From Owenweeksia sp. (GTDB lineage Bacteria; Bacteroidota; Bacteroidia; Flavobacteriales; Schleiferiaceae), in the NCBI GenBank assembly GCA_965218075.1, contig CBDCJZ010000003.1, positions 1,476,768 through 1,540,767 of the forward strand: a stretch of DNA of 64,000 nt, in the 5' to 3' direction. Shown here in pieces: positions 38,701 to 43,305 of the stretch. A model generated the notes under the pieces. That model was not told the origin of the DNA. It ran no database searches and saw only the letters and a program-made list of their open reading frames with translations. Numbering within the stretch: the first letter of the stretch is position 1; each line of letters begins with the position of its first letter. The position numbers and the translations under genes are program-made.

Positions 38701-38914
38701 TCTGGTAGTTATAAACTATCTAGTGGAAGATGTGAGCTCGGCCTATTTGATACTATCAGGGGTTAGCAGCGTGGACATTGGGGAGATTTATCCTTTAGAG
38801 GTAGATAATACTGTATTTACCATAAATACTGCTGATTATGAAACAGGTGTTTATACGGTAGCTTTGGTTTGTGATGATGAGATTGTGGATGTTATGGAAT
38901 TGGTAATCGAATAA
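35702..38914 (+). CDS. Secreted S8 (subtilisin-family) serine peptidase with a T9SS C-terminal sorting domain
   Basis: Signal peptide present. The catalytic triad contexts are AVIDEGV (Asp), TNHGNACAG (His) and GGTSAAAPQVAG (Ser). The C-terminus LYPNPVESLVVINY...GVYTVALVCDDEIVDVMELVIE resembles a type A Por_Secre_tail. Confidence 0.85.
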   Translation: MNMKKLLFAFAAGHLFTLPTVMLAQDDFYYVCNNEKVFLTEVSGKYVIEFPDGLNSEVQAEILPGEDGYPKKINDKIYVVTDTNDLNSYSSDYYITPMYTTSEGAELYVTRSILLKFKSDVSDSAKDNIESTYSLVNVKTTSIYEMYTCSDALQTSRVVYESGLVEFCHPDFISQVEPHHIPNDEYFGKQFYLHNTGQIINDGRSGTLDADIDAPEAWDITKGSSDIVIAVIDEGVTSNHPDLPNTRQVRLNGSNFGGGDPDDPSPVDSLEKTTNHGNACAGIIAATQDDSIGISGVAPLCKIMPVRIDYGISTLSDFADAIEFAYKNGANVISNSWGGGTESLCVIVRAIENAIDSGSIVIFSAGNKAHHMNGYPGYVVFPGNANIEDLITVGASDRNNQQANYSPTGTEFEIAAPSHRASCWPQDSTETSEVWTIDIPGIYGNNPWKDYLDDPRYNPCDDIPPHGERLPSTGSNPLAYTGRMGGTSAAAPQVAGVAALMLSVNSCLVPHQIKDLLQKTADKVGGYNYYWNPDAFGHSKELGYGKLNAHKAVVAAQSFHSTTLDLYMRDRHDDLGYDAGYAWTWGFDKSPDIWVRNQNDGLTNHQSQAAEYSSSSPVYVYVRVGNKSCVASTGTEKLSLYWTKASSNSSWPQNWDGTDTTIGNKISTSNIPALQPGQHTILELTWNTPDPYIHKKWEFCLLARIEGVAADPIRVHPNELAQDIYQNNNVSMRNVAIIDWVLSIDDPDLPYYPPGSFVYVGSSRDEEVNADGEGTEEGTYDLILRVPESVDGSPLTEEAEVSLRFDKQGWEIFESQLHDREDVRIRGEGEIIISGANMVSFNNLNFPANTRIPIYIGFSFLIDRVSEKSEFEYHLIQKHSTARIEVEEHWTGGVHFRVKKYPREPFAAIATVSDWEINRGESVTIVAEQLAEAAIYNWYDSEDNLISTGESITVSPELTHTYKLEVIALADGFKDYSEDLEITVNSNRRLTALYPNPVESLVVINYLVEDVSSAYLILSGVSSVDIGEIYPLEVDNTVFTINTADYETGVYTVALVCDDEIVDVMELVIE

Positions 38915-38976
38915 TGTTTTATGGCAAGGGAATGGAATCCCTCCACTTTTGGTTTAACTAAAAATAACTAATAATA

Positions 38977-39663
38977 ATGAAAAGGTTAATACTTATTGCC
39001 TCCTTGTGTTTTTCAATATCTAATGCTTCTGCAGAGATAGTATCTACTGACCAAATTATAGAGGTAATTAATAATCAGAAGATAAGAATAATAAAAAGTG
39101 TGACCTTTAAATCTGAACCAGAGCCAGGATGCTCGGCCTTTAAATTATTTACTTATGAAGTGTTAGATGGCGGCATCGTAGATATTCGGTTTTATTATGA
39201 CGCTAACGGCTTCGGGTTTGGTCTTTCCCGTCCTTGTTCTAGGACAGATACTGTTTGGATTGATTTGCCCTTAAGAGGGATAGGTGGAAACCCATTTCCA
39301 GCGGGCATTTACACGATTATTGTACGTGCAGTTGAAGTATGGCATCATAGGATAAAAATTTATCAAATAATAAGTCATGTTGTTGATACCATCGATGATG
39401 TAGCTCTTTCTGTAAATAACTATACTGCCAAAACAAATGTCATAGAGGTTTTTCCAAATCCTTCAAGGGATATTTTCAATATGGAATATCCAAGAGGATT
39501 AGATATTTTCAATATTTCTTTGATAGACCTGCAAGGAAGGAAAATAAAGCTATTTAAAGGGTCTCAAAAACAATTGAACATCTCCGGAACTCTACCCGGC
39601 CAATATTTCCTAAATCTGGAAACCAGTAAAGGAATTATCACTGAGAAAGTGTTGATTGAGTAA
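38977..39663 (+). CDS. Small secreted T9SS cargo protein, array copy 1
   Basis: 228 aa. Signal peptide MKRLILIASLCFSISNASA, an N-terminal domain with two Cys, and a C-terminal VFPNPSRDIFNMEY...QYFLNLETSKGIITEKVLIE T9SS sorting domain. Confidence 0.8.
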   Translation: MKRLILIASLCFSISNASAEIVSTDQIIEVINNQKIRIIKSVTFKSEPEPGCSAFKLFTYEVLDGGIVDIRFYYDANGFGFGLSRPCSRTDTVWIDLPLRGIGGNPFPAGIYTIIVRAVEVWHHRIKIYQIISHVVDTIDDVALSVNNYTAKTNVIEVFPNPSRDIFNMEYPRGLDIFNISLIDLQGRKIKLFKGSQKQLNISGTLPGQYFLNLETSKGIITEKVLIE

Positions 39664-39842
39664 AAGTGGATGGGGGGTAACAATGTATAATAAAAACATA
39701 TATGAAACAGGTGTTTTTATACGGTAGCTTTGGTTTGTGATGATGAGATTGTGGATGTTATGGAATTGGTAATCGAATAATGTTTTATGGCAAAGGAATG
39801 GAATCCCTCCACTTTTGGTTTAACTAAAAATAACTAATAATA

Positions 39843-40524
39843 ATGAAAAGGTTAATACTTATTGCCTCCTTGTGTTTTTCAATATCTAATGCTTCTGCAG
39901 AGATAGTATCTACTGACCAAATTATAGAGGTAATTAATAATCAGAAGATAAGAATAATAAAAAGTGTGACCTTTGGATCTCAAGTACGGCCAGGATGCGG
40001 GCTCTTTGAATTATTTACTTATGAAGTGTTAGATGGCGACATCGTAGATATTCGGTTTTATTATAACACTGCCTTCCACGGGTTTGGTAGCCGTCCTTGT
40101 TCTAGGACAGATAACTGTTTGGATTGATTGTCCCTTAAGAGGGATAGGAGGCCCATTTCCAGCAGGCATTTACACGATTATTGTACATGCAGTTGAAGTA
40201 TGGTATGATAGGATAAAAGGTTATCAAATACTAAGTCATGTTGTTGATACCATCGATGATGTAGCTCTTTCTGTAAATAACTATACTGCCAAAACAAATG
40301 TCATAGAGGTTTTTCCAAATCCTTCAAGGGATATTTTCAATATGGAATATCCAAGAGAATTAGATATTTTCAATATTTCTTTGATAGATCTGCAAGGAAG
40401 GAAAATAAAGCTATTTAAAGGGTCTCAAAAACAATTGAACATCTCCGGAACTCTACCCGGCCAATATTTCCTAAATCTGGAAACCAGTAAAGGAATTATC
40501 ACTGAGAAAGTGTTGATTGAGTAA
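39843..40524 (+). pseudogene. Array copy 2, frameshifted (track ORFs 39843..40127 and 40084..40524)
   Basis: It reads gataactgtttgg where the other four copies read gatactgtttgg. The extra A at ~40113/40114 splits the reading frame. Confidence 0.8.
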
Positions 40525-40703
40525 AAGTGGATGGGGGGTAACAATGTATAATAAAAACATATATGAAACAGGTGTTTTTATACGGTAGCTTTGGTTTGTG
40601 ATGATGAGATTGTGGATGTTATGGAATTGGTAATTGAATAATGTTTTATGGCAAAGGAATGGAATCCCTCCACTTTTGGTTTAACTAAAAATAACTAATA
40701 ATA

Positions 40704-41381: not shown

Positions 41382-41561
41382 AAGTGGATGGGGGGTAACA
41401 ATGTTATAATAAAAACATATATGAAACAGGTGTTTTTATACGGTAGCTTTGGTTTGTGATGATGAGATTGTGGATGTTATGGAATTGGTAATCGAATAAT
41501 GTTTTATGGCAAGGGAATGGAATCCCTCCACTTTTGGTTTAACTAAAAATAACTAATAATA

Positions 41562-42242
41562 ATGAAAAGGTTAATACTTATTACCTCCTTGTGTTTTTCA
41601 ATATCTAATGCTTCTGCAGAGATAGTATCTACTGATCAAATTATAGAGGTAATTAATAATCAGAAGATAAGAATAATAAAAAGTGTGACCTTTGGATCTC
41701 AAGTACGGCCAGGATGCGGGCTCTTTGAATTATTTACTTATGAAGTGTTAGATGGCGACATCGTAGATATTCGGTTTTATTATAACACTGTCTTCCACGG
41801 GTTTGGTAGCCGTCCTTGTTCTAGGACAGATACTGTTTGGATTGATTTTCCCTTAAGAGGGATAGGAGGCCCATTTCCAGCAGGCATTTACACGATTATT
41901 GTACATGCAGTTGAAGTATGGTATGATAGGATAAAAGGTTATCAAATACTAAGTCATGTTGTTGATACCATCGATGATGTAGCTCTTTCTGTAAATAACT
42001 ATACTGCCAAAACAAATGTCATAGAGGTTTTTCCAAATCCTTCAAGGGATATTTTCAATATGGAATATCCAAGAGGATTAGATATTTTCAATATTTCTTT
42101 GATAGACCTGCAAGGAAGGAAAATAAAGCTATTTAAAGGGTCTCAAAAACAATTGAACATCTCCGGAACTCTACCCGGCCAATATTTCCTAAATCTGGAA
42201 ACCAGTAAAGGAATTATCACTGAGAAAGTGTTGATTGAGTAA
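41562..42242 (+). CDS. Small secreted T9SS cargo protein, array copy 4
   Basis: 226 aa. Nearly identical to copy 2, including the variable patches, but intact. Confidence 0.8.
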   Translation: MKRLILITSLCFSISNASAEIVSTDQIIEVINNQKIRIIKSVTFGSQVRPGCGLFELFTYEVLDGDIVDIRFYYNTVFHGFGSRPCSRTDTVWIDFPLRGIGGPFPAGIYTIIVHAVEVWYDRIKGYQILSHVVDTIDDVALSVNNYTAKTNVIEVFPNPSRDIFNMEYPRGLDIFNISLIDLQGRKIKLFKGSQKQLNISGTLPGQYFLNLETSKGIITEKVLIE

Positions 42243-42420
42243 AAGTGGATGGGGGGTAACAATGTATAATAAAAACATATATGAAACAGGTGTTTTTATA
42301 CGGTAGCTTTGGTTTGTGATGATGAGATTGTGGATGTTATGGAATTGGTAATCGAATAATGTTTTATGGCAAAGGAATGGAATCCCTCCACTTTTGATTT
42401 AACTAAAAATAACTAATAAA

Positions 42421-43104
42421 ATGAAAAGGTTAATACTTATTGCCTCCTTGTATTTTTCAATATCTAATGCTTCTGCACAGTCTGCACAGATAAGATCTAC
42501 TGATCAAATTATAGAGGTAATTAATAATCAGATGAGAATAATAAAAAGTGTGGCCTTTGAAGTTGCAATGAAGCCATGCCCGAGCTTTGAATTATTTACT
42601 TATGAAGTGTTAGATGGCGGCATCGTAGATATTCGGTTTTATTATCACATTTACAACTCCGGGCTCATCTGGAGTCCTTGTTTTAGGACAGATACTGTTT
42701 GGATTGATTTGCCCTTAAGAGGGATAGGAGAACCATTTCCAGCAGGCATTTACACGATTATTGTACATGCAGTTGGAGTATGGTATGATAGGATAAAAGG
42801 TTATCAAATAATAAGTCATGTTGTTGATACCATCGATGATGTAGCTCTTTCTGTAAATAACTATACTGCCAAAACAAATGTCATAGAGGTTTTTCCAAAT
42901 CCTTCAAGGGATATTTTCAATATGGAATATCCAAGAGGATTAGATATTTTCAATATTTCTTTGATAGATCTGCAAGGAAGGAAAATAAAGCTATTTAAAG
43001 GGTCTCAAAAACAATTGAACATCTCCGGAACTCTACCCGGCCAATATTTCCTAAATCTGGAAACCAGTAAAGGAATTATCACTGAGAAAGTGTTGATTGA
43101 GTAA
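42421..43104 (+). CDS. Small secreted T9SS cargo protein, array copy 5
   Basis: 227 aa. A 9-bp duplication tctgcacag x2 (42472-42489) lies at the signal-peptide cleavage region. It has unique variable patches. Confidence 0.8.
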   Translation: MKRLILIASLYFSISNASAQSAQIRSTDQIIEVINNQMRIIKSVAFEVAMKPCPSFELFTYEVLDGGIVDIRFYYHIYNSGLIWSPCFRTDTVWIDLPLRGIGEPFPAGIYTIIVHAVGVWYDRIKGYQIISHVVDTIDDVALSVNNYTAKTNVIEVFPNPSRDIFNMEYPRGLDIFNISLIDLQGRKIKLFKGSQKQLNISGTLPGQYFLNLETSKGIITEKVLIE

Positions 43105-43305
43105 AAGTGGATGAGGAGTAACAATGTTATAATAAAAACATAGTGGACTAAGTATGGTATAGATGCGTTTGTACGACTAAGTTATACTAGTTAAATAATG
43201 CGAAGTTGCTTTGATTTCTAAATGCAGCACTTCCGAAATCTCTGACTCTTGATATCATTCAGGTAGGGCTGCTAGAGATGACAAAACAGAGGTTAGAATC
43301 TTGCC

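Follow-up and report, generated by a model that had tools for sequence, protein, structure and literature searches.

Layout of the tandem array

We analyzed a 64,000-nucleotide stretch of the genome of Owenweeksia sp. (Bacteroidota; GenBank assembly GCA_965218075.1, contig CBDCJZ010000003.1, positions 1,476,768 to 1,540,767 of the forward strand), hereafter called the window, in which a gene for an S8 (subtilase) peptidase is directly followed by five head-to-tail repeat units of 858-864 bp each, spanning 38837-43142. Each unit carries one gene for a small protein with a C-terminal sorting domain (CTD) of the type IX secretion system (T9SS). The features of the locus are as follows (positions are those of the window; VR1 and VR2 are the two hypervariable patches of each gene copy; ORF, open reading frame):

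35702..38914, plus strand: S8 (subtilase) peptidase gene, 1070 aa, with a weak T9SS CTD of its own (Pfam Peptidase_S8, E-value 1.4e-46)
38837..39700, plus strand: repeat unit 1, containing the still intact 3' end of the peptidase gene (38837-38914), then a weak hairpin (38924-38946) and then gene copy 1
38977..39663, plus strand: gene copy 1, 228 aa, ORF with matches to Por_Secre_tail (2e-10) and TIGR04183; VR1 39109-39142, VR2 39199-39231
39701..40561, plus strand: repeat unit 2, containing a non-coding remnant of the peptidase tail with a TT insertion (39701-39780) and gene copy 2
39843..40524, plus strand: gene copy 2, frameshifted into ORFs 39843-40127 and 40084-40524; VR1 39975-40008, VR2 40065-40094
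40562..41419, plus strand: repeat unit 3, containing a peptidase-tail remnant (40562-40641) and gene copy 3
40704..41381, plus strand: gene copy 3, 225 aa, ORF with Pfam match; VR1 40833-40866, VR2 40923-40952
41420..42279, plus strand: repeat unit 4, containing a peptidase-tail remnant (41420-41499) and gene copy 4
41562..42242, plus strand: gene copy 4, 226 aa, ORF with Pfam match, used for structure prediction; VR1 41694-41727, VR2 41784-41813
42280..43142, plus strand: repeat unit 5, containing a peptidase-tail remnant (42280-42359) and gene copy 5; the sequence beyond 43142 is unique
42421..43104, plus strand: gene copy 5, 227 aa, ORF with Pfam match and the most divergent patches; VR1 42559-42589, VR2 42646-42675

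The sequence-only reading of this stretch had proposed a five-copy array of ~860-bp units starting at 38837, 39701, 40562, 41420 and 42280, and this layout was confirmed by a MAFFT alignment of the units (877 columns, mean column identity 96%), by a repeat search (five in-register copies with a spacing of 857-866 nt) and by the junctions between the units. All four internal junctions are the identical 21-mer, formed by AAAACATA on the left and TATGAAACAGGTG on the right of the junction, at 39693, 40554, 41412 and 42272, with zero occurrences expected by chance. Tandem Repeats Finder returned nothing, as the longest period that it handled was 500, below the size of the units.

Each unit consists, in this order, of a copy of the peptidase tail (78-80 nt), a short hairpin-and-leader region, a gene of ~680 nt, and 38 nt of trailing sequence. 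As unit 1 starts 78 nt upstream of the stop codon of the peptidase gene, the last 78 nt of which thus form the start of the array, the first 78-80 nt of each later spacer are a copy of the peptidase tail. A TT insertion that breaks the reading frame is common to the remnants in units 2-5, and is absent only from unit 1, where this segment is the functional end of the gene. The locus is a clean, self-documenting example of the birth of a bacterial gene family, because the remnant of the upstream gene in each unit fixes the founding breakpoint.

Variation among the units

A pairwise identity matrix of the units, proposed as a check in the sequence-only reading, gives values of 94.2-99.2% for whole units and 97.2-99.3% when the two patches are left out; within the patches, identity is 52-75%, except for units 2 and 4, which are 98% identical there. 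The majority of the 95 variable alignment columns lie in columns 284-317 and 374-406, i.e., the two patches; there is a minor third variable cluster at columns 502-535, and a few more variable columns are located in the signal-peptide region. By comparison, only ~12 columns vary across the last ~330 nt of the gene taken together with the spacer, in agreement with the earlier description of the 3' end of each gene and of the spacers as almost invariant. Three single-base polymorphisms cited at the same time are all present, namely, agagGatta/agagAatta (column 673), gatagaCctg/gatagaTctg (column 704) and caaGggaatgg/caaAggaatgg (column 94). The sequence-only reading did not mention the peptidase-tail origin of the start of the spacers, the frameshift of copy 2 at 40113 or the minor third patch (columns 502-535), and also passed over the single-copy, peptidase-linked ancestry of the family described below.

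One copy has decayed by frameshift. Copy 2 contains an extra A at 40113 (GATAACTG versus GATACTG in the other copies), and apart from it unit 2 is 99.2% identical to unit 4. The frameshift marks either a young pseudogene or a sequencing error; either copy 2 should be annotated as a pseudogene or the frameshift should be checked again. In copy 5, a perfect 9-nt tandem duplication (TCTGCACAG twice, at 42472-42489) adds Ser-Ala-Gln to the cleavage region of the signal peptide.

The patches, which had been an aside in the sequence-only reading, are the main biological signal of the locus. The two major ones are 30-34 nt long, and together with the minor third they have been spared homogenization and contain in-frame indels and a large surplus of substitutions that change an amino acid. 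Very recent amplification alone, one of the two explanations offered earlier for the near-identity of the copies, fails here, since the nucleotide divergence of the patches is 25-48%, versus 1-3% at the neutral sites around them. Using the method of Nei and Gojobori, we obtained proportions of nonsynonymous (pN) and synonymous (pS) differences of 0.34 and 0.06 in VR1, 0.33 and 0.14 in VR2, 0.031 and 0.027 in the scaffold of the N-terminal domain (N-domain), and 0.002 and 0.021 in the CTD. When changes from the majority codon were counted among the four distinct alleles under a star phylogeny, the patches had 58 nonsynonymous versus 4 synonymous changes (binomial p = 6e-4), and the rest of the mature protein had 16.5 versus 6.5. 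As estimated from these alignments, amino acid change in the loops formed by the patches has run at more than 10 times the local neutral divergence, a rate for which relaxed constraint alone is insufficient. Either the loops are older than their flanks and have been shielded from conversion by selection, or they have rapidly diversified under positive selection, and both alternatives imply selection for loop diversity. The juxtaposition of homogenized flanks and two hypervariable loops thus points to selection acting against homogenization.

Among the array copies, the two loops are 38% and 42% identical versus 91% for the scaffold, whereas the corresponding values are 62% and 48% versus 70% in orthologue group A, and 62% and 78% versus 66% in orthologue group B (groups of family members from other genomes). 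In both of these groups, conservation of the loops is thus about equal to that of the scaffold.

The encoded proteins

The product of each intact copy starts with a putative Sec-type signal peptide, recognized by eye, which is followed by an N-domain of ~130 aa and ends with a T9SS type A CTD. The signal peptide, MKRLILIASLCFSISNASA followed by E, looks like one cleaved by signal peptidase I at an AXA site; it has no lipobox, and its cysteine is a tyrosine in copies 3 and 5. Export or anchoring would instead depend on the CTD. The sorting domains of the intact copies score 41-43 bits against PF18962 (cut-off 27) and 41 bits against TIGR04183 (cut-off 23), and the domain is above the curated thresholds in all 18 members of the family described below. 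As is typical of T9SS type A cargo (PF18962, TIGR04183), all five copies and all homologs carry the sorting domain, as do the adjacent peptidase and five other paralogs. Such a match defines the export route only, and is silent on the function of the N-domain.

For this domain, none of the 18 family members gave a Pfam match, and NCBIfam has no matching family either. AlphaFold2 prediction of copy 4 with paralogs alone was unusable (predicted local distance difference test score, pLDDT, of 45), whereas the prediction with the 18 homologs gave a mean pLDDT of 70, with values of ~70-84 across most of the N-domain. The N-domain is predicted to be all-beta with seven strands, and in a Foldseek search the CTD part of the model matches the solved T9SS CTDs 8glk_D and 8qb1. 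In the model, VR1 corresponds to the beta2-beta3 loop, VR2 to the beta4-beta5 loop, and the minor third patch to the beta6-beta7 hairpin; given the up-and-down topology of the strands, all three would lie at the same end of a seven-strand beta-sandwich. Each of the two major patches ends at one of two cysteines, which are conserved in most of the wider family.

The beta5-beta6 loop of the array proteins (residues ~96-107; 39250-39285 and equivalents) also contains 9-10 inserted residues, PLRGIGG(N)PF. This insertion is absent from all other family members, is modeled with low confidence, and has the extra Asn in copy 1. A HMMER search of 1.84 billion representatives with the N-domain returned only weak, repeat-inflated matches to SdrD_B giant T9SS proteins, among which P0013 reaches 53 bits summed over six repeats; the matches involve N-domain residues ~56-95. 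We judged a kinship to SdrD_B or Cna-B domains (PF17210 or related) to be probably spurious, as no such Pfam match was found at an E-value cutoff of 0.05 in the 18 members. A profile-profile comparison gave no sign that the N-domain derives from the C-terminal region of the peptidase itself.

Relatives of the array genes and their neighborhoods

The array form is restricted to one genome among 5.8 billion protein clusters, where every protein looked up is a singleton cluster, and the collections searched hold no second genome of this organism. Five more distant paralogs (P0004-P0008) are located in the same contig of 2,253,929 bp outside the window. Their signal peptides and CTDs are near-identical among themselves, and P0004, P0006 and P0008 differ chiefly in short patches beside cysteines, thus the design of conserved ends and variable loops recurs elsewhere in the genome.

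Full-length orthologs of the peptidase with 43-60% identity occur across Bacteroidota. A small gene encoding a CTD protein lies directly downstream of the orthologous peptidase gene, on the same strand and at a distance of 30-120 nt, in five of the six loci that could be read (L005, L007, L008, L010 and L015). These small proteins are homologous to the array N-domain and share with it the motifs DQ..-V..N.KIRII.S..F....C and FYY.....C..DT, and a profile built from them recovered 13 further members of 203-232 aa; the distant homologs comprise P0139-P0153. A metagenome scan with the peptidase added one informative locus, L015, and one with orthologue group B found nothing; scanning genome contigs with the family alignment yielded only CTD proteins that are unrelated. 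The small domain, which carries no annotation, thus recurs in Bacteroidota beside a widespread T9SS subtilase of ~1,050 aa. In all eight related loci found, the family gene is present in a single copy.

The linkage to the peptidase is recurrent but facultative. Family genes without a nearby peptidase are found in L012, which is a second paralog in the same metagenome-assembled genome as L005, in L013 and in L014. L014 is syntenic with L008 except for the peptidase gene. Both have the order two-component system, 144-aa gene, YtkA-like gene, TonB receptor gene, small CTD gene and recR, and only L008 has a 3.2-kb S8 peptidase gene between the TonB receptor gene and the small gene; the comparison of these two loci indicates that the peptidase is a presence/absence polymorphism at that site. 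Conversely, in Flavobacterium aquatile (L009; GCA_006539785.1) the peptidase ortholog is followed by an unrelated 112-aa lipoprotein-like ORF, and there is no small family gene; this peptidase gene adjoins pyrH and frr, as in the window, and is preceded by a 145-aa ORF without a Pfam match.

In L005, L007 and L015 the peptidase gene and the small gene are separated by a strong terminator-like hairpin (-18 to -31 kcal/mol, z-scores of -5.8 to -9.1), located at L007:3828-3861, L005:9218-9249 and L015:5691-5744; the sequences of the stems differ, and the structure is kept.

Growth and homogenization of the array

Since the family gene is single-copy in all relatives found, the array represents a lineage-specific amplification, and the identical junctions together with the shared peptidase remnant indicate a single founding duplication. 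This event joined the sequence 38 nt beyond the stop codon of the small gene to the 3' end of the peptidase gene, with the left breakpoint 78 nt within that gene; microhomology at the breakpoint is at most 2-3 nt (by inspection). The identity of the junctions indicates that later growth was homologous, and it would have proceeded by unequal recombination between units. Units 3 and 5 have common derived states at columns 174, 209, 252-254, 259, 278, 288 and 862. The pairing of unit 2 with unit 4 and of unit 3 with unit 5 in the alignment suggests that one expansion step probably copied a two-unit block.

The units are also regional mosaics. In columns 1-283, unit 1 is set apart from units 2 and 4 by only 2-3 positions, whereas in columns 407-560 it has 10-13 differences and is the outlier. 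Furthermore, three of the eight differences between units 2 and 4 (columns 94, 226 and 704) are polymorphisms that also occur in other units, and there are four-gamete incompatibilities. As judged from the alignment, this regional mosaicism and these shared polymorphisms show that short-tract gene conversion acts between the units. The same process would account for the 97-99% identity that the units retain in the spacers, the signal peptide, the scaffold and the C-terminal sorting domain. Mean pairwise divergence is 0.012 in the intergenic sequence versus a pS of 0.02-0.03 in the coding scaffold. Thus, of the two mechanisms put forward in the sequence-only reading, ongoing gene conversion or unequal crossover is largely borne out by the identical junctions, the mosaics and the four-gamete incompatibilities, whereas recent amplification alone does not account for the patches. 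The locus is also likely to be a site of copy-number change and of mis-assembly from short reads.

We consider it likely that the locus arose by lineage-specific tandem amplification of a segment of ~860 bp carrying one gene for a small T9SS-secreted protein, the loops of which have diversified while the flanks were homogenized. As such, it is of a fairly ordinary and well-known kind, an array of tandem paralogs that evolve in concert and under diversifying selection, here built on an unannotated domain family.

Possible functions and alternative explanations

Under the amplification account, four distinct loop variants of one immunoglobulin (Ig)-like scaffold, as modeled, would be exported and, considering the type A CTD, probably displayed on the surface. 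The array would then amount to a diversified set of binding specificities kept by diversifying selection, and its proteins may be regarded as putative secreted or surface-attached Ig-like binders, the specificity of which would reside in the cysteine-pinned loops of the predicted structure. These loops of the N-domain are the obvious place to seek a ligand.

Tandem arrays of paralogous genes for surface or secreted proteins that evolve in concert and have hypervariable regions are known from several bacteria, including the opa genes of Neisseria, the outer-membrane-protein paralogs of Helicobacter and the variable lipoprotein clusters of Mycoplasma. As in these arrays, the ends of the units described here are near-identical, including the non-coding flanks, a state maintained by gene conversion or unequal crossover; the short hypervariable segments inside the units have an excess of amino acid changes, and one copy has decayed, as in birth-and-death turnover. 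Unlike them, this array has no visible phase-variation repeats, invertible promoter or silent cassettes. Moreover, its products combine the T9SS export route with a new N-domain, a common leader sequence precedes all copies, so that they may be co-expressed, and its origin is unusually legible from the remnant of the upstream gene in each unit. A literature search on tandem hypervariable T9SS paralogs returned nothing specific.

Several observations weigh against this interpretation. The selection statistics are based on four alleles and ~18 synonymous sites in the patches, and pS is itself raised inside the patches (0.06-0.14 versus 0.02-0.03 outside), which fits equally well patches that are older than the homogenized flanks or an import from unseen donors. 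The juxtaposition of the loops, as well as a putative disulfide between the two cysteines, is deduced from the topology of a model of moderate confidence. A profile search of the N-domain against PDB sequences gave no match at an E-value cutoff of 10, and Foldseek found no relative of it in PDB at an E-value cutoff of 1e-3, only generic tandem Ig-like proteins. Our domain scan covered 36 of the 45 window ORFs of at least 150 aa, including all those within ~10 kb of the array, and no genes of the T9SS machinery (PorK/L/M/N, SprA/Sov, PorU/V) were seen among the scanned ORFs of the 64-kb window.

The small proteins might be partners of the adjacent S8 peptidase, most plausibly inhibitors or regulators that insert a loop, in which case the array would be a panel of reactive loops. 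We regard this possibility as tentative and rather unlikely; it refines the function of the proteins and does not conflict with the evolutionary account given above. In its favor, protease-inhibitor families typically have hypervariable loops that are flanked by cysteines and encoded by genes duplicated in tandem. In addition, five independent loci other than that of the window have the small gene directly 3' of the peptidase ortholog and on the same strand. On the other hand, the family members in L012, L013 and L014 have no nearby peptidase, though L014 is syntenic with L008; the Flavobacterium aquatile ortholog lacks the small gene; the terminator-like hairpins in L005, L007 and L015 argue against obligate co-transcription; and four loop variants are unneeded for one peptidase. 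In other Bacteroidota, T9SS peptidases are genetically linked to small beta-rich inhibitors, the loops of which wedge into the active site (PMC9890683). These are the potempins of Tannerella forsythia, partners of the KLIKK peptidases: lipoproteins of 98-132 residues that have a lipid anchor in the outer membrane, are encoded directly upstream of the target peptidase and co-transcribed with it, and have either an oligonucleotide/oligosaccharide-binding (OB) fold or a beta-barrel of eight strands in up-and-down arrangement with loops inserting into the active-site cleft (PMC9890683). As in the potempin/KLIKK pairs, a T9SS-secreted peptidase, here of the subtilase type as in mirolase, is linked to a small beta-rich protein with exposed loops. 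However, the array proteins have ~226 aa, are encoded downstream of the peptidase, and have a Sec signal without lipobox, a T9SS type A CTD and a predicted seven-strand sandwich, and their linkage to the peptidase is not obligatory. Foldseek and PDB searches found no sequence or fold similarity to potempins or to any solved inhibitor. All the potempin features tested (lipoprotein signal, upstream position, barrel fold or sequence similarity) failed, and the array proteins are therefore at most an analogue, even if, among Bacteroidota, the potempin system comes nearest in function as a precedent for small beta proteins linked to a peptidase. A more specific version, that the N-domain defines an undescribed family of T9SS-exported cysteine-pinned loop proteins acting on subtilases (the adjacent S8 peptidase or foreign proteases) as inhibitors or specificity adaptors, is speculative, and we think it unlikely to hold. 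If true, the array would be an arms-race panel of reactive-loop specificities, and Bacteroidota would have in this family a second counterpart of the potempin system, without structural kinship to it.

The remaining alternatives concern how the patches or the array came about. The patch variants might have been imported from divergent donor cassettes elsewhere in the genome, through segmental gene conversion of the kind seen in pilE/pilS-type or vlsE-type antigenic variation, rather than having arisen in situ. This could explain the sharp boundaries of the patches (from ~98% to ~55% identity), their in-frame indels and their higher synonymous divergence, and at least five more paralogs with conserved ends and variable middles exist in the same genome. 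But no donor-like match of more than 12 nt is found in the 64-kb window outside the array, and the N-domains of P0004-P0008 are too different to be donors, which makes such an import quite improbable. Targeted hypermutation of a very young array, by a diversity-generating retroelement (DGR) or similar system, is suggested by the extreme localization of the variation within near-identical copies. In DGR targets, too, only a short stretch of a domain is hypervariable, and the domain is of a ligand-binding type and part of a secreted protein. We rejected the DGR mechanism, and hold any such hypermutation to be extremely unlikely, because no reverse transcriptase, integrase or transposase domain occurs in the 36 scanned ORFs, no template repeat is present in the window, all four bases vary without adenine bias, and the patches contain indels; the near-identical patches of units 2 and 4 further imply that they were copied faithfully. 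Finally, repeats of 860 bp with 97-99% identity are hard to assemble from short reads, and an error in sequencing could have produced the one-base frameshift of copy 2. Nevertheless, misassembly of a repeat is a very unlikely explanation for the array or for its number of copies, as every unit has private variants, there are four different patch alleles, the junctions are clean and identical, unique sequence lies on both flanks, and the 2.25-Mb contig suggests a long-read or finished assembly.

Leader sequences and the rest of the window

The counterpart in the window of the hairpin between the peptidase gene and the small gene (38924-38946) is decayed (-9 kcal/mol, z-score of -0.2), and column 94 of the alignment (G/A) weakens it further in units 2, 3 and 5. 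The 5' leader at 38921-38962 and its counterpart in each unit, ATGGCAAGGGAATGGAATCCCTCCACTTTTGGTTTAACTAAA, reads as MAREWNPSTFGLTK, and the called N-terminal extension of P0006 and P0008 (MAEESAPFAFGLTKKVDK) is the translated counterpart of this leader. The leader is thus conserved between two subfamilies whose N-domains no longer align, and this sequence, which precedes the start codon, may be a regulatory element common to both. A scan of the array for sigma-70 and terminator consensus sequences did no better than on shuffled sequences, with a consensus that does not cover Bacteroidota promoters, and neither the window nor the spacers had a match above threshold when scanned for Rfam families and tRNAs.

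Four window ORFs have no Pfam match, namely, those of 1468 aa (8141-12547, plus strand) and 392 aa (12761-13939, minus strand), at an E-value cutoff of 1e-5, and those at 28127-28654 and 30098-30859. The chromosomal context is otherwise ordinary, with a G+C content of ~38%. Upstream of the array are genes for lipopolysaccharide and sugar-nucleotide metabolism (Kdo transferase, DegT aminotransferase, UDP-glucose dehydrogenase and epimerases), downstream of it, on the minus strand, are frr, pyrH, tsf, rpsB and the gene for ribosomal protein L13, and elsewhere in the window are dnaN, tpiA, purC, a uvrA-like gene and electron transfer flavoprotein (ETF) genes.

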